Part shown: positions 27,773 to 59,964 of the stretch, one piece after another
Position numbering within the stretch: the stretch's first letter is position 1
Layout of the letters: every line of letters starts with the position of its first letter
Origin: a bacterium
GTDB lineage: Bacteria; Patescibacteriota; Microgenomatia; UBA1400; PJMF01
Reading direction: 5' to 3'
Length of the DNA: 64,000 nucleotides
NCBI GenBank assembly: GCA_017431625.1
Contig: JAFRKQ010000015.1
Span: 17,608-81,607, forward strand
Position numbers and translations under genes: made by a program
Notes under the pieces: model-generated
What the model was told of the DNA's origin: nothing
The model's input: the letters and a program-made list of their open reading frames with translations, nothing else
The model's database searches: none

Positions 27773-27801
27773 ATTATATCACATATGGTCACTTTTGTCA
27801 A
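27773..27801 (-). promoter_or_regulatory. Sigma70 promoter TTGACA-17-TATAAT preceded by conserved AATTGCCTC
   Basis: Minus strand: AATTGCCTCTTGACAaaagtgaccatatgtgaTATAAT. Confidence 0.6.
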
Positions 27802-27810
27802 GAGGCAATT

Positions 27811-27837
27811 TTAGCACTAGCTCTTGCAATTTGCTAA
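27811..27837. promoter_or_regulatory. CIRCE-like inverted repeat (HrcA operator candidate) upstream of dnaJ-like gene
   Basis: TTAGCACTA-N9-ATTTGCTAA vs consensus TTAGCACTC-N9-GAGTGCTAA; lies just upstream of -10 TGTATAAT (27845-27852). Confidence 0.6.
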
Positions 27838-27860
27838 TTTTCGGTGTATAATAGGTGCCT

Positions 27861-28709
27861 ATGCCAACAAAAAGAGATTATTATGAAGTTTTGGGAGTGA
27901 GCAAGACGGCGAGTGAGGACGAAATCAAGTCGGCCTATCGCAAAATGGCTCTCAAATATCATCCAGATCGTAATAAAGCCGCTGATGCTGAGGCAAAATT
28001 TAAGGAAATCAATGAAGCTTATCAAGTTTTGAGTGATAAAAGTCAGCGGCAAAAGTATGATCAATTTGGCCACTCAGCTTTTGATCCAGCGGCTGGCATG
28101 GGTGGCAATCCTTTCTCGGGTGCCTATCAACAAGGGCCATTCACTTGGTCATATTCCACTGGCGGTTCGCCTTTTGGTGATGGAGTGGATTTCATTGATC
28201 CTTTTGAAGTTTTTAATAGTTTTTTTGGCGGTAGCTACAATAGCCGGCGGATGCCTAATTATTCGCTCCACCTTGATTTTATGGAAGCCGCTTTGGGGTG
28301 TGAAAAAACTATTAGTGTGGGTGATCGCCGACAAACAATCAAGATCCCGGCTGGGGTTGATGATGGGACTCGCATCAAATTTACTGATTTTTACGTCACT
28401 TTTGACGTGGGTGCTGATCCTTATTTCAAGCGGCAAGGAGCGGATTTGTATGTCGATGTTTCGCTTCCAGTTTCGGCTTTAATTATTGGGGCAACAATCA
28501 AGGTAAAGACATTGACGGGTGAGATTAAGATGAAAGTGCGTGAGGGGACACCATCACACACGATGCTGCGACTTTCGGGCGAAGGTTTGGACCGATTGGA
28601 TCGGCGTGGTAAGGGTAATTTGTATGTGCGCCTGATCGCTGATATTCCCAAAAAGCTCAATCGTCAACAAAAACAAGTGGTCAATGCTTTGCGGGATGTT
28701 GGCCTATAA
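27861..28709 (+). CDS. DnaJ-class co-chaperone without zinc finger (type II, CbpA-like)
   Basis: J domain DYYEVLGV...[13 protein letters not shown] with HPD, G/F region, two C-terminal beta-sandwich domains, no CxxCxGxG repeats. Confidence 0.75.
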
Positions 28710-29115: not shown

Positions 29116-29409
29116 GTGACTTATTATACACTAAAATTGACAAAAATGGCACTAGTCTTGTTTGATCTTGTGCGGATATAAAAATATCGGTTACTGACAT
29201 TTAGACTTATAAAATTAAACGAGACTGATAAAATTGCCTGTAAAAATCCCATAAGTTTTGATTTAAACAATTGATATTAATATCTAAAAATTATTAACTA
29301 ACGCTAATATTGGGGCTTGCACTTTTGTCGGTTTTGTATTATAATAGGGGCGTTTGGGTAACCAGACGAAAAGCGAAAATAGAATTTGAGAAGAAATATT
29401 AAGGGCGAT

Positions 29410-31632
29410 ATGTTAAAAAATAATAAACTGCTTTACATTTTACCAGAAATGTCTTTCACAGCAACCGTGGGTGAAACGCCAAAACAGGACTATTATTTTG
29501 TCCAAACATTTCACCAAATTAACGGTGAGTTTATGCGCGATGAGAACTTTATTCACGAAAGCCTCAAAAAGTTGTTTGAGCGTGTGGAAGAAGCGCAATA
29601 TACTTTGGTATTGCCAGATTTTCTTTTTACAGATACTATTGTTAATGTACCCGAAACAGACGATGTCAAAATAGCTCAGTATTTGCGTGATCAATTGTTA
29701 CCACGCATTGAAGTCTCAACATTTTCGCACGAGACACGCACGTCGGTACTACTTCAGCGTAAAACTACGGCTAAAGTGCAGCTGTCGGCTTTTGAAAAGG
29801 AGCTGGCGGCTTCGTTGAAATTAGCCATTGGCAGTCGTGACATCACCATTGATGAAATTGTGCCTTTGTCATGGGCGCTCAAAGCAGCTGTCAGTCTTGA
29901 ACCCTCGCTCACTATTGCCCAAGTTGGTGAACGGTTATATTTGGCTGAACACTATATCGGTATTAATCAGACGATTAGTACCCCGATTAATGATTTGGAC
30001 GTGCTAGCGGAGTCGGTACGGACTTTGAAAGGCTCTGATCCTAATTTGCAAACCACTTATCTTTTCACCTCACAACTGGTGGAAGAAAAACTCAAGAAGT
30101 TCTTACTCAAGACTTTGCCGGTACAGCAGCTGACAGAGCCCATCGAAGAAGAAGCAAAAATTCCCCCATATGTCAAGCAAATTATTGAAGTGACTGCTAG
30201 AACTTTGAGTCTGTCGGATTTTGCTGTGCCTCGTTTCACTCTCCAGGCTGACGATCTTTTGGGTCAGATTCCCGCTTTGCCGGTCACCCAAGCAGAAGAA
30301 ACAACTGAGACAAAAGTCGAACCCGAAACAAGCGTGGAGTCCATTGATAATCATGATAATCAATCAACGAAGGAGCAAGCGGCCGAGGTGGCAGCTGTAG
30401 CGACAGCGGTGGCTCGCAGTTTGGACTTGGAGACGGCTAGTGACGCCGCGCTAGCATCACCAACAGCAAAACAATCTCAGTCGCCAGCAGACTCGACAAC
30501 GTCAGCAGCAAAATCAGCAGTAGCCTTGGACTCGGAAAAAGAAACTCCTCAACAAGCTTCGGAGTCCGAGGTCAGCGAGCCGGCTCAACCGGCGGCAGCC
30601 GAGCAAGCAAGTGAAGTGCCGGCGACGACAGCAACACCACCACAAGTGGCAACGGCTAGTCTCAATCGCGAGCCAACGCTGACGCAAGCAGCGGTGAGCG
30701 CAGAGTCAGTCGCAGTTGATGCCAAATCAGAAGCGTCATCATCTACGTCTCAGGCAGAGGTTACGGCACAAGCGTCACCGGTTTTGGTAGAGTCAGCGCC
30801 AGCGATTGCTGCTAAGCCGGAGACACCCGCTCTGGCGTCAGCATCAACACCGGCTCAACTCAAACAACCAGAAACGCCAGTCTTAAGTCAACCAGCGAAA
30901 GTGGAACAATTGCCTAGCAATGAGGCGATGCCGCGTTTGAGTTTCATGTCTCCCAAGCAAACTGCAACTAGCGAAACTATATCAGCGACTAATAACCCCA
31001 GTTCTCAGGATACTGAAGCGACCAAAAACGATAAAACTAGTGCAAAAAATGACAAAAAAGATGATAAAATATCAGCTAGTAAGCAATCGACGAGCAAGAA
31101 GAAAGGAAGCATGTCTTCATTTATAAAAAAATTACTGTTGTTTTTGTTGATTTTTGTGATTGTCATCGCTATCGGTATTGGTGTTGGGGTGTTAATCTTA
31201 TCCATGACCGATAAAGATTTTTTCAAGCGTGACGATTTACCAGAACCAGAGATGTCAGCTTTGCCCACGCCTGAGCCAGAAGAAGTGCCAGTACCCGAGG
31301 AATCTTCACCTGAAGCGGAAATTGTTGAGGAAGAAGAAGAAATTGATCCGGCTGAGTTTTCACTTAAAGTGGTTAATGCCACTGGGGTTGCTGGATTGGC
31401 TGGCAAGGCCAAAACTGCTCTTGAATCAGCAGGTTTTAGTGGCGTGCAAACCGGCAATGCTGCTGGTGAATATGAGACAGAAGGCACTTTTGTCTTGATG
31501 AAGGAAAAAAATTCGGCACTGATTAAGGCTTTGGAACAAGCTACCGGGCGGACGATGAATTACGATGAGGATGTAGACGTGGAAGACAAGGCTGGTAGCT
31601 TTGACGCGGTCATTGTCCTTAATGAGGAATAA
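29410..31632 (+). CDS. Membrane protein with cytoplasmic N-terminal domain, ~290-aa Ser/Ala/Thr/Glu-rich linker, TM helix and C-terminal LytR_C domain
   Basis: TM LLLFLLIFVIVIAIGIGVGVLIL; C-terminus FSLKVVNATGVAGLAGKAKTALESAGFSGVQTGNA...DAVIVLNE matches LytR_C; ATG 29410 with SD AAGGG. Confidence 0.6.
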   Translation: MLKNNKLLYILPEMSFTATVGETPKQDYYFVQTFHQINGEFMRDENFIHESLKKLFERVEEAQYTLVLPDFLFTDTIVNVPETDDVKIAQYLRDQLLPRIEVSTFSHETRTSVLLQRKTTAKVQLSAFEKELAASLKLAIGSRDITIDEIVPLSWALKAAVSLEPSLTIAQVGERLYLAEHYIGINQTISTPINDLDVLAESVRTLKGSDPNLQTTYLFTSQLVEEKLKKFLLKTLPVQQLTEPIEEEAKIPPYVKQIIEVTARTLSLSDFAVPRFTLQADDLLGQIPALPVTQAEETTETKVEPETSVESIDNHDNQSTKEQAAEVAAVATAVARSLDLETASDAALASPTAKQSQSPADSTTSAAKSAVALDSEKETPQQASESEVSEPAQPAAAEQASEVPATTATPPQVATASLNREPTLTQAAVSAESVAVDAKSEASSSTSQAEVTAQASPVLVESAPAIAAKPETPALASASTPAQLKQPETPVLSQPAKVEQLPSNEAMPRLSFMSPKQTATSETISATNNPSSQDTEATKNDKTSAKNDKKDDKISASKQSTSKKKGSMSSFIKKLLLFLLIFVIVIAIGIGVGVLILSMTDKDFFKRDDLPEPEMSALPTPEPEEVPVPEESSPEAEIVEEEEEIDPAEFSLKVVNATGVAGLAGKAKTALESAGFSGVQTGNAAGEYETEGTFVLMKEKNSALIKALEQATGRTMNYDEDVDVEDKAGSFDAVIVLNEE

Positions 31633-40356: not shown

Positions 40357-41661
40357 TTAGTAGGCTTCATCATTATAGCGTGAGTTGATACCCCAATCAC
40401 TGATTTTGGCAACACCATGTCCAGTGTGACCAACACCCAAGGGATATTGATCTCCGTTGGGAGTTGGCATACGCTCTTGCTGGCGTCGTTGATTGTCCCA
40501 CGCATAGCCTTCACCGTCAATCATGGTGGTAGACTCAAAGTGGTAACCGGTGGGCGACAAGCTGCACTCCACACTAGGAGTTTTAGTCAGACAATCGGGA
40601 TCATTTTGACTGGCGACACCTACACAACCAGCGTGCCCAGCAATGTAAGATGAACCACCACCGCCAGTGCCGACGTAGTTGGTAACACTACCACCAGCTT
40701 CCCCACCATACCAACCGCCACCACCGCCGCTGCCATAACTAGGTGCACTACCGCCTTGGCCAAAAGCACTCCGACGCCAGAAATCGCCCGCAGTGACTTC
40801 ACTGGTTACTTGTGTTCCGCCTGCTCGATTGATGTAATCGGGAGACTCGTCACCACAAAAAGCAAAATTTGTATTAGTGCCAGAATAACCAACAAGTCCA
40901 CCGGCACTACCACCTTTGGCACGACAACCAGCATAATTGAGCGCGCCACCGCCACCACCGGCAACCATAATCCGACTGCTGAGGGAACCGGTATCGTACC
41001 ATTCTCCTTTGATCAGGCGAATATCAGTGGCACCGCCACCACCGCTTCCCCAAGAGGATGGGGCTACGCCACCAGCGCCGCCGGCATTAAATGCTGCTGT
41101 TTTTTCGCCGTTGCCCACAACATGTTCGCCGACATAAACATAAACGATCGTGTCATTGTCAACAGTGAGTATCCCCGCGGTATAAGCTCCACAGCCACCG
41201 TCATTGTGCTGTTCGTCAATATTGCCACCTTGGGCACCCCAAAGTTCAACATAATACGTGTGATTGGCCTTGAGTGTCACCGTCTGCACTGCTCCTGTAT
41301 AAGTAAAAATCTTGCTACCATGCTCTGCTATTGTTTGTTCTTGGGTGTCGGTAACGACTATGCTATTATTGTCAGGCGGAATTTCCCAGTCAATCTTATT
41401 ATCTATAGCAACGTGACTTGGTGATGAGGGTGCGGGTGTGGGTAATGGTTGACCATCGTCGTTTTGGCTTGCAATATTCAAGAAACTGTCTTGAGAAGTC
41501 GATCTGGGTGTTTGATAGGTAGTAATTGCAGCGGCACCAACCAAAGTGACAATGACGATAAAAACACCAATGGTAACAATCGTGCTAGTGTCATCACTGT
41601 TAGGTTGGTATTTTGAAGCGGTATTATTGCTAGTATTGAGATTTTCTTCTTGACTGGACAT
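40357..41661 (-). CDS. Membrane-anchored glycine-rich-domain surface protein
   Basis: N-terminal TM IVTIGVFIVIVTLVGAAAI, then YVELWGAQGG...GGGGA...GGSAGGLVGY...GGGGGWYGGEAGG repeats reminiscent of the ALK-type Gly_rich domain; own promoter TTGACA-17-TATAGT. Confidence 0.6.
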   Translation of the reverse strand: MSSQEENLNTSNNTASKYQPNSDDTSTIVTIGVFIVIVTLVGAAAITTYQTPRSTSQDSFLNIASQNDDGQPLPTPAPSSPSHVAIDNKIDWEIPPDNNSIVVTDTQEQTIAEHGSKIFTYTGAVQTVTLKANHTYYVELWGAQGGNIDEQHNDGGCGAYTAGILTVDNDTIVYVYVGEHVVGNGEKTAAFNAGGAGGVAPSSWGSGGGGATDIRLIKGEWYDTGSLSSRIMVAGGGGGALNYAGCRAKGGSAGGLVGYSGTNTNFAFCGDESPDYINRAGGTQVTSEVTAGDFWRRSAFGQGGSAPSYGSGGGGGWYGGEAGGSVTNYVGTGGGGSSYIAGHAGCVGVASQNDPDCLTKTPSVECSLSPTGYHFESTTMIDGEGYAWDNQRRQQERMPTPNGDQYPLGVGHTGHGVAKISDWGINSRYNDEAY

Positions 41662-42029: not shown

Positions 42030-42458
42030 TTAATTGATTTCGATGTGTTTGCTCTCTGGCAGCTTCTCTGGCTCTTGCTTTTTGGGCAAAGTGATTTGCA
42101 AAATTCCATCATTGAAGCTGGCTTTAATGTCGTCGCGAGTGATATCTTCGCCGACATAGAAGCTTCGGGCGCAAGAACCATAGAAGCGTTCTTGACGGAC
42201 GAACCGCTCCCCTTCTTTCTCGTCCACATTTTTGTGGGTTTGAGCGGAGATTTTGAGATAACCGTCTTCGAGTTGGATGTCAATATTATCCTTGCTAAAT
42301 CCAGGCATATCAACATCAATTAGATATTCGCCTTTCTTTTCGCGGATGTCAGTTTTCATCAAACTGCCAGTTGAGGGTGAGAAGAAATCCCCTCCTCCAA
42401 AAAAGCTGTCAAAAAGATCAAAATCACGTCCGCGGCGTGGTACCATAGTCATGAGCAT
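42030..42458 (-). CDS. Hsp20/alpha-crystallin small heat-shock protein
   Basis: 142 aa ACD domain (GYLKISAQ...ERFYGSCARSF...DGILQITLPK). Confidence 0.9.
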   Translation of the reverse strand: MLMTMVPRRGRDFDLFDSFFGGGDFFSPSTGSLMKTDIREKKGEYLIDVDMPGFSKDNIDIQLEDGYLKISAQTHKNVDEKEGERFVRQERFYGSCARSFYVGEDITRDDIKASFNDGILQITLPKKQEPEKLPESKHIEIN

Positions 42459-42494: not shown

Positions 42495-42545
42495 ATTATA
42501 GCACAATTTTTAGCAATGTCAACACCCAATTGCTAGTAGTGCTAA
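42495..42545. promoter_or_regulatory. hsp20 promoter (TTGACA-16-TATAAT, minus) overlapped by CIRCE-like inverted repeat
   Basis: TTAGCAATG-N9-AATTGCTAG (42510-42536) followed by AGTGCTAA (42538-42545). Confidence 0.55.
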
Positions 42546-52757: not shown

Positions 52758-55163
52758 TTATTTTTTCGGTGTCGCTTGATCTTTATGATTTGTTTTTTTC
52801 TTGGCTACAGGCTCAAGAGCAATCTCGAGGTTTTCGCGAACGCTTTTGGTGGGTACAAATTTGATATTCTTGCGAATTTCTTCTGGTATCTCTACCAAAT
52901 CACGCTGATTTTCCCAGGGAATACAGATAGTTTGACACCCCGCTCTAGCAGCGGCAATGGATTTTTCCTTAAGGCCACCAATACGCAAAACTTTGCCGCG
53001 CAATGTTACCTCGCCAGTCATAGCCACATCTTTTTTCACTGGACGCCCAGTAAGCGCTGAGACTAGAGCAGTCACGATGGTTACGCCAGCAGAAGGGCCA
53101 TCTTTGGGCACGGCTCCTTCGGGCACATGTAAGTGAATGTCGGTATGATCAAGTTTTTTGATAGTTAGTCCAAAGTCAGCAGCGTGAGAGCGAACATAAG
53201 TCATCGCTGCTTGAGCTGATTCTTTCATGACGTCACCTAGCTGACCTGTAAGCTTAAGCTCTCCTTTGCCTTCACTGGTGGCCACCTCAATAAAAAGCAC
53301 ATCGCCACCAACACTGGTCCAAGCAAGGCCGGTCGCAACACCCACCTCGTTTTCTTGGTTTTTTATGCTGACATCAAATTTTTGTGGGCCTAAAAATTCG
53401 GCTAATTTTTTGTCATCCACAACAATATTTTGGAGTTTTTTGTTGGCTACTAGGAGACGGGCGCTTTTGCGCATGATCTTGTCGAGTTGTCGGGAGAGTT
53501 CGCGCACACCAGCCTCTTTAGTATAATTTTCGATAATTTCATTAAGAATTTTTTCGTCGATGGTGACCTGCTCTGGTTTGAGACCGGCATTGGCCAAAGA
53601 TTCTGGCAAAAGATATTTTTGGGCAATGATCATTTTTTCCGAGACGGTGTAGCCAGCATAGCGGATAATCTCCATCCGATCGAGCAAAGGCTCGGGAATG
53701 TCAGTGGTATTGGCGGTGGCAATAAATATTATTTTGGATAAATCATAGGGCATGTCAAGGTAATGGTCTTCAAAAGTTTTGTTTTGTGATGGATCGAGCA
53801 CTTCGAGAAGAGCAGCTGAAGGATCCCCGTGATAGTCATAGTCCATTTTGTCAATTTCATCAAGCATAAAAACGGGATTGCTGGTGCCAGCTTGTTTGAG
53901 ACCATTGATAATTCGACCCGCCATAGCGCCGACATAAGTGCGTCTGTGGCCACGAATTTCGGCTTCATCGCGGACGCCACCTAGGGAAATGCGGGCAAAC
54001 TTGCGTCCCAAGGCTTTGGCAATACTTTGACCAATGCTAGTTTTGCCCACTCCTGGCGGTCCCACAAAACACAAAATTGTGGGCTTTTCGTTGACTTTTT
54101 TTTGATCTTGATGTAGGCGCAAGACGGCGATGTATTCCAAAATCCGATCCTTAACTTCTTCCAGACCATAATGAGATTCATTGAGAATTTTTTCGGCTTT
54201 TTTGAGATCAAGGACATCATTGCTAAATTTATTCCACGGCAGTTCAAAAACGGTGTCCAGCCAGTTGCGCAAATAAGAGCTTTCGGGATTGAAAGATGAG
54301 GTGGAACGAAATTTTTGCAATTCTTTTTTGATTTTGTTTTTAATAGCTTCGCCAACGTCAAGTTTTTTGAGTTTGTTGTCGTATTCGCTGGAGTCATCGC
54401 CTTCATCAGTCAGTTCGCCCAATTCTTTTTGGATCATGGATAGGCGCTCGCGCAAGATATTTTCGCGCATGTTTTTTTCCATTTTTTTGTGAGTTTTGGT
54501 GATGACATCGGTTTCAATTTTGGCCACTTGCAGCTCGGTATTTACTTGCGCCATAGTGATTTTAATCCGCTCACTAATTTTGGTCGCTTCCAAGAGTTTT
54601 TGCTTATCACTGGGGCTGGCTGACAAAAGATTGCCAATGTGATCACAAGCTTGTCCTGGAGGTAATACACGCAAGAAAGCTAAAAAATTCTCTGGTTGCT
54701 CAATCAAACCAATGCTGATTAGCTGGGAAAAATCATGCAGGAGATGATTACGCATGAGTTCGATTTTTTCGGGTGTCAGGTCATATTCATCTTCAACAAT
54801 TTCGACATTGGCAATAATTGCTTTGTTGGCCGCGCTCGTGCGTCCCCAATTCAGTACGCGTGCACGGTGAATAGCGGTAACATTAACTGAATAACTATCG
54901 CGCTTAATGTCCTGAGTCACCGAACCGACTTTGGCAATAACTCCCATCTTGAAAAGATCGCGAGCGGTGGGATTGTCAATATTGGGTGATTTCTGAGCGG
55001 TAATAAAAATAAAATCTTGGGATTTACGACTGGCACGGACGGCAGCTTTGCTGGATTCGCGAGTAAAAATCATCTGAGTCTGCATGCCGGGGAAAAGAAC
55101 ACCCTCTTTGAGGGGGGCGGTGGGTAATAACATGATATTTTCTAAAATTTCGACTTCTGACAT
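52758..55163 (-). CDS. lon: ATP-dependent Lon protease
   Basis: LON N-domain, AAA+ Walker [10 protein letters not shown], proteolytic domain PKDGPSAG; leaderless ATG 55163. Confidence 0.9.
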
Positions 55164-55172
55164 ATGGGGCGT

Positions 55173-55214
55173 ATTATACCACAACTTTTAGCAGTGTCAA
55201 GGGCTGGTTGCTAA
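55173..55214. promoter_or_regulatory. lon promoter (TTGACA-16-TATAAT, minus) overlapped by CIRCE-like inverted repeat
   Basis: TTAGCAGTG-N9-GGTTGCTAA at 55188-55214. Confidence 0.55.
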
Positions 55215-55242
55215 AAAAATGCTGCCAGTCAAACGGAAAACG

Positions 55243-55251
55243 TGGTATAAT
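55243..55251 (+). promoter_or_regulatory. Extended -10 (TGgTATAAT) for suf operon
   Basis: 11 nt upstream of sufC ATG 55263. Confidence 0.5.
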
Positions 55252-55262
55252 ACAGACAATTG

Positions 55263-56021
55263 ATGACGAAAACAGATGATTTGCTACAGATTAGAAATTT
55301 AAGTGTCGCGTTGGAAACGAAAAAAGTTTTACATGATATTGATTTGACTTTGGGCGTTGGTCAAACATTGGTGCTTTTGGGCCCTAATGGCGCGGGCAAA
55401 TCGACTTTGGCAAACACGATTGCGGGTATTGATCGTTACCAATTGACACAGGGCGAGATTAATTTTTGTGGACAAGTGATTAATGACTGGTCGCTAACTC
55501 GTCGGGCACAAGCTGGTCTGATGATGACGTGGCAAAATCCTCCGTCCTTGCCAGGAGTATTGACGAGTAATTTTTTACGTCAAGCCTACGAAAAAACTGG
55601 ACAGGAAAAGCTAACTATCTTTGAGTTTCAACAAAAATTGAACAAATTTTGTGAACAATTACACCTACCAATTACCATGATGTCACGTGATTTTGGTGTG
55701 GGATTTTCTGGAGGCGAAAAAAAGAAGTTGGAATTGTTACAACTATTATTACTACGACCGCAAGTGGCCATTGTTGATGAACTCGATGCTGGCTTGGACA
55801 CTGACGCCGTCAAATTGGTGAGTCAAAACTTGCGTGCTTTCCAAAAAGAAACGCAGGCAGGCCTGATTATCATCACTCACACAGCCCAAATTTTGGCTCA
55901 TTGGCCAATTGATGATGTTTTGGTGCTATATCAAGGACACATTGCGGCCACTGGTGGTCAAGAGTTAATCGCTCGCATACAAAAAGATGGTTATAGCTGG
56001 CTAAAGGAAGAAGATGACTAA
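55263..56021 (+). CDS. sufC: Fe-S cluster assembly ATPase SufC
   Basis: ABC ATPase with Walker A GPNGAGKST and signature FSGGEKKK. Confidence 0.9.
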   Translation: MTKTDDLLQIRNLSVALETKKVLHDIDLTLGVGQTLVLLGPNGAGKSTLANTIAGIDRYQLTQGEINFCGQVINDWSLTRRAQAGLMMTWQNPPSLPGVLTSNFLRQAYEKTGQEKLTIFEFQQKLNKFCEQLHLPITMMSRDFGVGFSGGEKKKLELLQLLLLRPQVAIVDELDAGLDTDAVKLVSQNLRAFQKETQAGLIIITHTAQILAHWPIDDVLVLYQGHIAATGGQELIARIQKDGYSWLKEEDD

Positions 56022-57354
56022 GGGTCTGGCGCGCGAGCTTGTCATGGAAATATCGCGCATTAAAGATGATCCGGAGTGGATGCGTCAATTGCGCTTGCAA
56101 AGTTTGGATATATATAATAGTACCCCCTTACCCGCATGGGGGCCTGATTTATCTGGTTTGGATTTATCACAGATTGAAACTTTTGTCTGGCCGAAAAACA
56201 AAATCCATGATGACTGGTCTCAAGTGCCGCCTGAAATTCGCGATACTTTTTCTCGTCTGGGTATTCCACAAGCAGAAGAGAAATTTCTTGCTGGCGTGGG
56301 AGCACAACTAGATTCTGAGATGGTGTACCATCGTCTACAAGAAATGGCAGCCGAACAGGGAGTGTATTATGCTGATTTGGAAAGTGCTTTGCATTCTGAT
56401 TATGAGTCAATGATCCGGGAACATTTTGCTACGTTAATCAAACCAACTGATCATAAATTTGCTGCTTTGCACACGGCGGTGTGGTCAGGAGGTTCTTTTG
56501 TGTATTTGCCACCCGGTGTGAGTTTGACATTGCCTTTGCAAGCTTATTTTCGTCTCAACGCCAAGGGGGCGGGACAATTTGAACACACGTTGATTATCGT
56601 CGATCAGGGTGCGAGTTTGCATTTTATTGAAGGTTGCTCGGCACCACGCTACAATCAAGTTAGTCTACATGCTGGTAGTGTAGAACTTTTTGTGCGTCCG
56701 CGCGGCTACTTGCGCTATACTACGATCGAAAATTGGTCGCGCAATATGTATAATCTCAATACCAAAAGAGCGTACGTGGATGATGAGGGCGTGATTGAAT
56801 GGGTATCGGGAAGTTTTGGTTCGTGTACCACCTGTCTGTATCCAGAAAGTATTTTGGCGGGTGATAAAGCAAAATCAAGTTATTCGGGAGTGACTTTTGC
56901 GGGGACTGGTCAGTGCTTGGATACTGGTTTTAAAGTGCAACATTTGGGTCGTAATACTAGTAGCCATGTCCAAGCGAAGTCAATCGCTAAAGGTGGCGGA
57001 GTGTCAGTTTTTCGCAGTAGTATTTGGGTGGGCGATCAGGCAGCTAATACCAAGACTTCATTGGCTTGCCACTCATTAATTCTGGATGCACACTCGCGCA
57101 GTGATACTATTCCGGCGATGGTGGTCAATCATCCGGAGACTGATTTGGGACATGAGGCGAGCGTGGGGCGTGTCAGTGATGAGCAATTGCATTATTTACA
57201 GGCGCGAGGCTTGACTCAACAGCAAGCATTACAACTTTTGGTTAGTGGTTTTGTTTCCGATTTTACCAATCAATTGCCACTAGAATACGCGTTGGAGATG
57301 AATAATTTACTTAATTTGGAATTGTCTCCAACGAGTAAGGAAGGACAAATATAA
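56014..57354 (+). CDS. sufB: Fe-S cluster assembly protein SufB
   Basis: 446 aa SufB/SufD-family beta-helix, overlaps sufC by 8 nt. Confidence 0.9.
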   Translation: MTKGLARELVMEISRIKDDPEWMRQLRLQSLDIYNSTPLPAWGPDLSGLDLSQIETFVWPKNKIHDDWSQVPPEIRDTFSRLGIPQAEEKFLAGVGAQLDSEMVYHRLQEMAAEQGVYYADLESALHSDYESMIREHFATLIKPTDHKFAALHTAVWSGGSFVYLPPGVSLTLPLQAYFRLNAKGAGQFEHTLIIVDQGASLHFIEGCSAPRYNQVSLHAGSVELFVRPRGYLRYTTIENWSRNMYNLNTKRAYVDDEGVIEWVSGSFGSCTTCLYPESILAGDKAKSSYSGVTFAGTGQCLDTGFKVQHLGRNTSSHVQAKSIAKGGGVSVFRSSIWVGDQAANTKTSLACHSLILDAHSRSDTIPAMVVNHPETDLGHEASVGRVSDEQLHYLQARGLTQQQALQLLVSGFVSDFTNQLPLEYALEMNNLLNLELSPTSKEGQI

Positions 57355-58280
57355 TGCAGAAAAATATTGATAAATCAATTATTTTTCTGGATAAATTTGT
57401 TGCTGTGCCAACGTGGAGTTGGTTGGGTTTGCAACCTCATGACGCTCTGGTGGCAGTTAATTCATCGGCAACTCAAGTCCAAATCGACAAAAAAATACCA
57501 CGACTGATAACTTACCGAATAAGTGATTTATCGGTGGACAACAGTGGCTTGGCAACCATTAATTTACAACTTGTTTTGGCGCCTTTGGCATCTGTCTGCT
57601 TGTTATTAGATTTTGGCGCATTGGATAAATTGGAAAAAATAAAAAGCGTTTTTTGTTGCTTGAAAAGTGAACTGCCGGCGCACGCGCAGCTGCGAGTTGG
57701 TATTTGCGTGCATGCTGGCAGCCGCCAAAATGTAAGCATCATCGGTCAGTGGCGTTTGCAGCGTGATAGTCAGCTTGAGTTGGCTGGTATGTACACTGGA
57801 GATGGCAAAGTTAGTGATAGACAGTTTGTTTTTTTAGCCGCACCACGAGCGCATGCGAGCGTTCAAACTTTTTACGATAGCGGTGGCGGGCAAATTGATA
57901 ATGATTATCAAATTGTTCATGCGTCTTCACAGACGCGAAGTCAGATTAATACTGATGGTATTATCCGGACAAATGGCCAAAAAACCTGGCGGGCTACCAT
58001 AGATTTTCGCGCTGGTAGTCGTGGCAGTCAAGGGAGTGAAAGCGAAAATGTTTTAGTTTTGGGACAGGCTGGGAGTAATAAATCGTTGCCGATAATTCTG
58101 ACACATGAAGATGATATTAAGGCAACACACAGTGTTAGCAGTGGTCGTGTGAGTGATGAAGTTGAGTGCTATGCTAGTGGTCGCGGTCTGACTCGCGAGC
58201 AAATAGAACAACTTTTGATTGACGGCAAGAAACAAAAAGTGCAAGGTTTGATTGATCAGTGGTCGCAAACAAAAGGATAG
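57354..58280 (+). CDS. sufD: Fe-S cluster assembly protein SufD (short form)
   Basis: SufB/D C-terminal beta-helix, position between sufB and sufS. Confidence 0.7.
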   Translation: MQKNIDKSIIFLDKFVAVPTWSWLGLQPHDALVAVNSSATQVQIDKKIPRLITYRISDLSVDNSGLATINLQLVLAPLASVCLLLDFGALDKLEKIKSVFCCLKSELPAHAQLRVGICVHAGSRQNVSIIGQWRLQRDSQLELAGMYTGDGKVSDRQFVFLAAPRAHASVQTFYDSGGGQIDNDYQIVHASSQTRSQINTDGIIRTNGQKTWRATIDFRAGSRGSQGSESENVLVLGQAGSNKSLPIILTHEDDIKATHSVSSGRVSDEVECYASGRGLTREQIEQLLIDGKKQKVQGLIDQWSQTKG

Positions 58281-58286
58281 CTATTT

Positions 58287-59525
58287 ATGGAGACAAAAAA
58301 TATTTTGCGTGATGAAGTAGTGCTGCGCCGACGTGGTGATTTCCCTTTTTTGTCTACGCATCCAGAACTGGTTTATTTTGATAATGCGGCGACGACACAA
58401 AAACCACAATCGGTTTTGTGGTCACAACAGAATTGGTATCAAAATCTCAATAGCAATCCTTTACGCGGAATGTATGATTTGAGCGCCAAAGCGACCGCGC
58501 AATATGAACGCGCTCGGGCCTTGGTGGCTAGCTTTATTGGTGCCAACACTGATGAAATCATTTTTACTAGCGGGGCGACAATGGGTTTAAATTTTTTGGC
58601 TTTAATGCAAACCGCCAACTGCCAAAAAGGTGACGAAATCTTAGTGTCAGTTTTGGAGCATCACGCTAATTTACTCCCTTGGCAAGAATTAGCGAGACGC
58701 AACGGAGCGCGTTTGGTCTATATTGAGCCGGATGAAAATGGTTTTTTGAGCGTGGATGCGCTGACAAGACAAATGTCAACACGGACCAAAATTGTCGCGC
58801 TGACTGGCATGTCCAATGTCGTTGGCAATCCGCCAGCGCTCAAACACATCAGTCAACTGATTCATAAAAACAATGCCTTATTTTTTGTTGATGGAGCGCA
58901 GTTAATCGCTCATCAGGCTATTAATGTTCACGCTTTGGATATCGACGCTTTGAGTTTTTCGGGACACAAGCTTTATGGTCCAATGGGGATTGGGGTTTTG
59001 TATCTGCGCCGCCAATTGGCCGAACAAGTGCCGCCGATTTTTGTTGGTGGTGAAATGATTAGTGAGGTGACTCGCGATCACTTTACTCTCGCGCCAATTC
59101 CACAACGCTTTGAGGCTGGCACAGTCAACGCCGCTGGAGCAGTGGGTTTAGCCAAAGCCATCGAGTATGTACAGGAGCTGGGAATGAATAATATTGCAGC
59201 TCGCGAACAGGAATTGACTATGTATTTGCTGCAGCAAATGCAAAGCTTGCCGGCAGTACAGATTCTTGGTAGCGCTAATGCCAGTGATCATTGCGGCCTT
59301 GTAAGTTTCAATCTTGCCGATGTCCATGCACACGACGTGGCGACTATTTTGGCCAGTGAAGGGATAGCAGTGCGCGCGGGTCATCATTGCGCGGCGGTTT
59401 TGCATCAGTTTTTCGGTGTACCAGCAAGCGTGCGAGTGAGTTTGAGCTGGTATAATACGCGCGGAGAAATTGACAAATTTATCCGTGTGTTAGCGACAGT
59501 ACGTGGGAGAATGGGTTATGAATGA
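58287..59525 (+). CDS. sufS: Cysteine desulfurase SufS
   Basis: Class V aminotransferase; SFSGHKLYGPMGIGVLY PLP-Lys region; active-site Cys (RAGHHCA). Confidence 0.9.
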   Translation: METKNILRDEVVLRRRGDFPFLSTHPELVYFDNAATTQKPQSVLWSQQNWYQNLNSNPLRGMYDLSAKATAQYERARALVASFIGANTDEIIFTSGATMGLNFLALMQTANCQKGDEILVSVLEHHANLLPWQELARRNGARLVYIEPDENGFLSVDALTRQMSTRTKIVALTGMSNVVGNPPALKHISQLIHKNNALFFVDGAQLIAHQAINVHALDIDALSFSGHKLYGPMGIGVLYLRRQLAEQVPPIFVGGEMISEVTRDHFTLAPIPQRFEAGTVNAAGAVGLAKAIEYVQELGMNNIAAREQELTMYLLQQMQSLPAVQILGSANASDHCGLVSFNLADVHAHDVATILASEGIAVRAGHHCAAVLHQFFGVPASVRVSLSWYNTRGEIDKFIRVLATVRGRMGYE

Positions 59526-59964
59526 TAGTTTTTATGGTGAAGTCCTAACGGAACATTATTTGTATCCGCGACACCAGCGGCAATTGGCGACTTATGATCG
59601 ACGCCAAGTGGGTGTGAATGCGAGTTGTGGTGATAGTTTGGAACTGCAAATTAAATTTGCCGGTGATCGAATTCAGGATTTGGCTTTTAGTGGTCAGGGG
59701 TGTGCGCTCTCGCGAGCCAGTAGTGACATTGTCTGTGGACTTTTGCAAGGACGCAGTCTGAGTGAAGCCCAAAAAATCATTGTCGCTTTTGATCAATTGG
59801 CGGCGGGTCAGGCCCATGAAGAACAAAAACAATTACTTGGTGAAGCGGTAAGTTTGGAGTCGGCGCTACAAATGCCTTTGCGGACCAAGTGTGTACAGTT
59901 GGCGTGGACACTAGCAGCTCAGTTGCTCCGGCCAATGTCTAGTGATAACAAAAACGAAACATGA
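59518..59964 (+). CDS. sufU: SufU/IscU-like Fe-S scaffold
   Basis: CGDSLELQIK...GQGCALSRASSDIVCG three-Cys scaffold; ATGA overlap with sufS. Confidence 0.8.
   Translation: MNDSFYGEVLTEHYLYPRHQRQLATYDRRQVGVNASCGDSLELQIKFAGDRIQDLAFSGQGCALSRASSDIVCGLLQGRSLSEAQKIIVAFDQLAAGQAHEEQKQLLGEAVSLESALQMPLRTKCVQLAWTLAAQLLRPMSSDNKNET

Follow-up and report, generated by a model that had tools for sequence, protein, structure and literature searches.

Is there a common switch for the genes of protein quality control in the Patescibacteria (candidate phyla radiation), where gene regulation is almost unstudied? The stretch of patescibacterial DNA analysed here, 64 kb long and called the window throughout, raises that question in a sharp form. 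A sequence-only reading had picked out three CIRCE-like inverted repeats, at 27811–27837, 42510–42536 and 55188–55214, on the promoters of a dnaJ-like gene, hsp20 and lon, and had predicted negative control of the three genes by HrcA. The repeats are where that reading placed them. What follows makes it highly probable, on comparative grounds, that they are operators for an HrcA-type repressor in a relaxed, Patescibacteria form of CIRCE.

Three repeats and the promoters that they overlap

When the outer hexamers and their spacing are taken as the pattern, TTAGCA-N15-TGCTAA, and one mismatch at most is allowed, S1, S2 and S3 are the sole matches in the window. They are listed here with one further half-site.

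27811–27837, no strand assigned: S1, putative operator in the dnaJ promoter, TTAGCACTA-N9-ATTTGCTAA, no mismatches to the pattern
42510–42536, no strand assigned: S2, putative operator in the hsp20 promoter, one mismatch
42537–42545, minus strand: extra half-site at hsp20, TTAGCACTA, 9 bp upstream of the distal arm of S2
55188–55214, no strand assigned: S3, putative operator in the lon promoter, no mismatches

The whole of S1 is TTAGCACTAGCTCTTGCAATTTGCTAA, with the parts TTAGCACTA-GCTCTTGCA-ATTTGCTAA. On the forward strand S2 is TTAGCAATGTCAACACCCAATTGCTAG (parts TTAGCAATG-TCAACACCC-AATTGCTAG, then TAGTGCTAA to 42545) and S3 is TTAGCAGTGTCAAGGGCTGGTTGCTAA (parts TTAGCAGTG-TCAAGGGCT-GGTTGCTAA). 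Read on the strand of its gene, S2 becomes CTAGCAATT-N9-ACATTGCTAA, its sole mismatch being in the distal arm, where C takes the place of T, and S3 becomes TTAGCAACC-N9-ACACTGCTAA. Chance would supply 0.28 matches with at most one mismatch, as estimated from 100 dinucleotide shuffles, none of which gave three; at two mismatches the six matches observed, against 3.8 expected, are at chance level. The trailing half-site that had been remarked on beside the hsp20 repeat is also present, as AGTGCTAA at 42538–42545 of the forward strand. With another arm, GGGTGTTGA, which overlaps the −35, the extra half-site forms a second, weak operator at 42519–42545 that overlaps S2, and the predicted hsp20 operator is in this sense a compound one.

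The genes and promoters concerned are as follows, with the suf operon that diverges from lon.

27824–27852, plus strand: dnaJ promoter, TTGCAA-17-TATAAT (promoter scan)
27861–28709, plus strand: DnaJ co-chaperone of 282 aa, with J domain and DnaJ_C and no zinc finger (Pfam)
42030–42458, minus strand: Hsp20/alpha-crystallin small heat-shock protein of 142 aa (Pfam)
42495–42522, minus strand: hsp20 promoter, TTGACA-16-TATAAT, 12/12, with an upstream TG (promoter scan)
52758–55163, minus strand: full-length Lon protease, with substrate-binding, AAA, lid and S16 domains (Pfam)
55173–55200, minus strand: lon promoter, TTGACA-16-TATAAT, 12/12, with an upstream TG (promoter scan)
55260–59964: suf operon, sufC-sufB-sufD-sufS-sufU

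Pfam bears out the gene identities proposed earlier, and among the approximately 50 larger ORFs scanned with it these are the only chaperone or protease genes. The element stands on all three of these quality-control genes and on no other gene scanned; groE and dnaK are not in the window. The dnaJ start is probably the ATG at 27861 since it fits a database protein, P0001, which at 282 aa is 100% identical to the window DnaJ, and because the ORF finder's start for lon, the TTG at 55184, falls in the promoter, the ATG at 55163 is likelier. A 434-aa ORF at 40357–41661 has a match to PF12810, the ALK/LTK glycine-rich domain (E = 2e-41), whose family takes its name from animal receptor kinases.

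Written on the gene strand, the three promoters run thus:

S1: operator TTAGCACTAGCTCTTGCAATTTGCTAA, then 9 nt ttttcggtg, then −10 TATAAT
S2: operator CTAGCAATTGGGTGTTGACATTGCTAA, then 9 nt aaattgtgc, then −10 TATAAT
S3: operator TTAGCAACCAGCCCTTGACACTGCTAA, then 9 nt aagttgtgg, then −10 TATAAT

The layout is common to all three: distal arm, −35 within the repeat spacer, gene-side arm, 9 nt, TATAAT, the gene-side arm taking up the beginning of the promoter spacer, between −35 and −10. The element had been described as sitting between or over the −35 and the −10, of which the part that stands is that it covers the −35 and the upstream promoter spacer, while its downstream end falls 9 nt short of the −10. 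That the TTGACA of the hsp20 and lon promoters is embedded in the repeat is confirmed by the promoter scan, and the −35 of dnaJ, TTGCAA, is inside as well. Two of the elements are in divergent intergenic regions: at 27773–27837, S1 starts 9 bp past the −35 that belongs to a divergent, perfect-consensus ispD promoter, and at 55188–55251, S3 stops 7 bp short of the predicted −35 of the divergent suf operon.

Might the repeats work instead as RNA structure, a thermometer or an attenuator, in the transcripts? An inverted repeat is capable of folding, and small heat-shock genes with RNA thermometers are known, but every repeat here stops 9 nt before the −10 and so is outside the mRNA from these promoters, and with 15 unpaired, variable bases between the arms only 6 bp can pair. 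The idea is barely credible and was rejected on the position of the repeats: as they are upstream of the −10, these promoters do not transcribe them, and they make sense only as DNA operators. Two other systems were searched for in the window and set aside. The CtsR box (GGTCAAA-NAN-GGTCAAA) gave four matches with at most three mismatches against 3.1 expected, and HAIR/HspR (CTTGAGT-N7-ACTCAAG) gave five against 2.5 at the same stringency, none of either near the three promoters.

The transcripts of dnaJ and lon probably have no leader. This reading of the sequence follows from an ATG only 8 nt (dnaJ, 27847–27863) or 9 nt (lon, 55163–55178) past the −10, with no Shine-Dalgarno in either; the gap is 7–9 nt in the related loci L081–L086 too. 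The hsp20 leader is approximately 40 nt long and carries GAAAGGAG.

Conservation in relatives and a relaxed consensus

The prediction had been tied to conservation upstream of orthologous chaperone genes, and in relatives the sites are indeed kept at lon, dnaJ and hsp20, the dnaJ upstream region of L095 being a place where the site has been lost. The nearest genome match for Lon is a Patescibacteria MAG, L081, with 81% Lon identity; a Lon-based scan of a species-representative genome collection returned two relatives, peptide words being poorly conserved. At lon the site is kept in L081 (TTAGCAATTGCCACTTGACACTGCTAA), L082 (TTAGCAATTACCACTTGACCCTGCTAA) and L086 (TTAGCAACTGATAATTGACACTGCTAA), each time followed by 9 nt and TATAAT. 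Upstream of the dnaJ orthologue, arms and layout are kept in L083, L084, L085, L086 and L094; L083, whose DnaJ is 81% identical to that of the window, carries another complete site immediately upstream of its dnaJ site, and L085 retains the gene order ispD-dnaJ-LytR_C. At hsp20 the site is kept in L081, where the distal arm is CTAGCA and the gene-side arm TGCCAA, in L087, which also keeps the neighbouring glycosyltransferase genes, and in L088. The latter two have TTAGCA without a mismatch as their distal arm, which makes the C of the window's S2 a single-base variant. The extra hsp20 half-site is kept in all three, as TTAGCACTA in L081, TTAGCGCTA in L087 and TTAGCAATC in L088.

Alignment of 11 orthologous promoters (A1) shows no variation at TAGCA, at a single T within the −35, at the gene-side arm's TGC..A or at TATAAT, and the spacer bases vary. 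Hexamers so strictly kept across relatives whose proteins are 62–81% identical argue that a protein which binds them is present.

What do the sites have in common beyond this clade's three promoters? From 42 distinct sites the symmetrised half-site is T (0.85), T (0.96), A (0.95), G (1.0), C (1.0), A (1.0), then G/A, T (0.67) and C (0.51). Judged from these sequences the outer hexamer alone is strict in this clade, and the Patescibacteria CIRCE consensus would be the relaxed TTAGCA(G/A)T(C)-N9-(G)A(C/T)TGCTAA. Against canonical CIRCE, TTAGCACTC-N9-GAGTGCTAA, the window sites have 13–14 matches of 18, and a search of the window with the 18-base consensus at up to three mismatches found none. 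The sites before hrcA in relatives score 13–16 of 18 on the same count, which implies that the whole clade uses a relaxed CIRCE.

A weight matrix of the arms only, trained solely on the sites of distant relatives, ranks the three window sites at the top with 21.7, 19.6 and 18.3 bits, at the low end of the range of the relatives' own scores (13.7–28.9). Fourth is an ORF-internal match at 30174 with 16.8 bits, which is near the 95th percentile of the maxima from shuffles; after it the score drops to 8.8. This fourth match, 30174–30200, is CAAGCAAATTATTGAAGTGACTGCTAG, lies inside an ORF with a LytR_C domain (29386–31632) and is probably due to chance. A 27-column matrix of the full width, spacer included, was tried and rejected; under it 30174 came out on top and the window sites had low scores. 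Its training sites, which precede hrcA, hold a −10 in the spacer where the window sites hold a −35.

Could the repeats then be accidental, or a consequence of how strong promoters are composed around the −35, with no repressor involved? Part of the local conservation does reflect the promoter, the −35 and −10 hexamers being conserved themselves, and the match at 30174 has a similar score under the arms-only matrix. Set against this, three sites are found where 0.28 are expected, and the ispD promoter (27801–27773), though of perfect consensus by the promoter scan, is without TTAGCA/TGCTAA arms. Further, the distal arm, which lies beyond the core promoter on the upstream side of the −35, does not vary in orthologues while adjacent bases do, and the three genes are all of one functional class. 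An origin by chance or from promoter composition is accordingly very improbable.

HrcA in more distant Patescibacteria

If a repressor binds, which one? Eighty metagenomic loci that encode DnaJ relatives were examined with, as probe, a HrcA sequence of B. subtilis. It found HrcA homologues in 30 of the 80, and 18 of these 30 are approximately 240–250 aa long and encoded a few kb upstream of dnaJ, in loci where DnaJ is 49–59% identical to that of the window; between all HrcA-bearing loci and the window clade the DnaJ identity is only 55–60%. Two of the short HrcAs were confirmed with PF01628 (58 and 63 bits, the Pfam cut-off being 22). In L002 the operon is hrcA-grpE-dnaK-dnaJ (Pfam) and its DnaJ, like that of the window, lacks the zinc finger, from which the ‘dnaJ-like’ gene of the window can be taken as the lineage’s dnaJ.

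Directly before hrcA, in about 30 Patescibacteria loci, is TTAGCA-N15-T(T/C/G)GCTAA, e.g., ttgacact-TTAGCAGTCATGCGCTATTATTGCTAA in L035 and TTAGCAGTAAAAATATAAGATTGCTAA in L002, with the −35 just upstream and the −10 in the repeat spacer. The motif also precedes dnaK (L003, L004, L014, L015) and, in seven loci (L003–L005, L007–L009, L035), a dnaJ that stands alone, apart from dnaK; where dnaJ directly follows dnaK it is served by the operon’s own site. Identical half-sites and spacing before hrcA and dnaK tie the motif to HrcA. The sequences suggest a design that recurs, in which the arms enclose a promoter hexamer: the −10 for hrcA of the relatives and the −35 for the window promoters.

The window itself, as had been said, is without hrcA. 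Neither phmmer with the B. subtilis HrcA nor an HMM of Patescibacteria HrcA found one among six-frame ORFs of at least 60 aa, and Pfam scans of approximately 50 further window ORFs revealed no HrcA. There is no hrcA within 10 kb in the loci of the close relatives L081–L088, and in the intermediate relatives L094 and L095 no HrcA is among the genes called around dnaJ. This gives some room to the suggestion that another repressor recognises TTAGCA-N15-TGCTAA, for instance after loss of hrcA in the lineage, as does the degeneracy here of the three inner bases of each arm, which classical CIRCE conserves. Yet the same outer hexamers at the same spacing directly before hrcA in the approximately 30 loci are a signature of HrcA autoregulation, the relatives’ hrcA sites are equally degenerate in their inner arms, and the sites show no consistent linkage to any other transcription factor gene. 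A different repressor is, on balance, unlikely, and lower still is the more specific scenario in which the lineage lost hrcA and another repressor took over three TTAGCA-N15-TGCTAA operators that are under purifying selection. What is likelier than this loss and takeover is that the short Patescibacteria HrcA, as a distinct minimal HrcA subfamily, may bind a relaxed CIRCE by its outer hexamers only.

The short HrcAs of the relatives, all outside the window, include the ORFs L024:6790–7545, L004:3732–4454, L002:6769–7512 and L035:5094–5837. Patescibacteria HrcA has approximately 240–250 aa as against approximately 340. It aligns to the B. subtilis HrcA in two blocks, approximately 2–123 and 230–330, covers only positions 75–215 of the Pfam HrcA C-terminal model, and aligns strongly to Thermotoga maritima HrcA (1STZ) only at the N-terminal winged helix, residues 14–105. 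The approximately 100 residues that it lacks are presumably the inserted dimerising domain of the 1STZ structure.

The conservation in relatives and the occurrence of the motif before hrcA and dnaK support the earlier prediction of HrcA-type negative control, and argue for HrcA as by far the most economical candidate for the protein that would bind S1–S3. We infer that it is encoded elsewhere in this genome. Bound as a dimer to the outer hexamers, the repressor would mask the −35 together with the upstream half of the promoter spacer and so deny RNA polymerase access to three very strong promoters of the sigma-70 type. By analogy with B. subtilis HrcA, folding stress would inactivate the repressor and dnaJ, hsp20 and lon would be released together, the presumed stimulus being heat or misfolding. 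HrcA activity in B. subtilis depends on GroEL/ES (Mogk et al. 1997, as cited in PMC7737663).

Comparison with known HrcA regulons

Full-text literature searches that combined HrcA with Patescibacteria or Saccharibacteria found no description of HrcA or CIRCE. The value of the present result is a concrete regulon together with a lineage-specific site model, in which only the outer hexamers count and a promoter hexamer is between the arms, for stress-regulon annotation in the thousands of such genomes. No new mechanism is revealed by the S1–S3 operators.

How far is all this from the textbook case? B. subtilis CIRCE, which with HrcA controls the dnaK and groE operons, has outer hexamers, TTAGCA and TGCTAA, and a 27-bp geometry identical to those here. 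There too the element is on chaperone promoters of the sigma-70 type, and in the relatives the motif precedes hrcA-grpE-dnaK(-dnaJ). However, the three inner bases of the window arms are degenerate, the lineage having TTAGCA(G/A)TC in place of TTAGCACTC; the B. subtilis element is between the −10 and the start codon whereas that of the window covers the −35; and the targets in the window are dnaJ, hsp20 and lon rather than groE and dnaK.

For low-GC Gram-positive bacteria there is precedent for a CIRCE on the promoter of a small heat-shock protein gene, as with hsp16 of Lactobacillus acidophilus (PMC3179173). Four loci found here, L090–L093, which have a GC content of 27–29% and by gene content are not Patescibacteria, encode an Hsp20 57–64% identical to that of the window, and their promoters read TTAGCACT(T/C)-N9-(A/C)AGTGCTAA, with TTGACA in the spacer, followed by 8–9 nt and TATAAT. 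The promoter-in-operator layout is that of the window, with arms that are near-canonical, whereas S2 of the window has degenerate inner arms, a hexamer in which C replaces T, and one more half-site upstream. The shared layout may be an old common promoter design, or may come from transfer of hsp20 together with its promoter. The L090–L093 loci also carry a gene for HSP90 or for a non-ribosomal peptide synthetase.

There is a likeness in gene content to the Mollicutes (Mycoplasma pneumoniae, M. gallisepticum and Spiroplasma), where HrcA and CIRCE control lon, dnaJ, clpB and dnaK (PMC7737663, PMC5138195). These extended regulons belong to very small genomes with few regulators, and their gene set matches that of the window, except that hsp20 is not among the Mollicute HrcA targets named in the passages used here and the hsp20 of the window carries S2. 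Functional CIRCEs of M. gallisepticum are reported to tolerate at most two changes (PMC5138195); unlike the window sites, Mollicute CIRCEs are near the canonical 18 bases, and the Mollicutes are an unrelated lineage. HrcA control of lon, dnaJ and small heat-shock protein genes is already known from Mollicutes and lactobacilli, and what is added here is a relaxed consensus in a little-studied lineage. Two unrelated genome-reduced groups, Mollicutes and Patescibacteria, would then both have placed lon and dnaJ under one conserved chaperone repressor.
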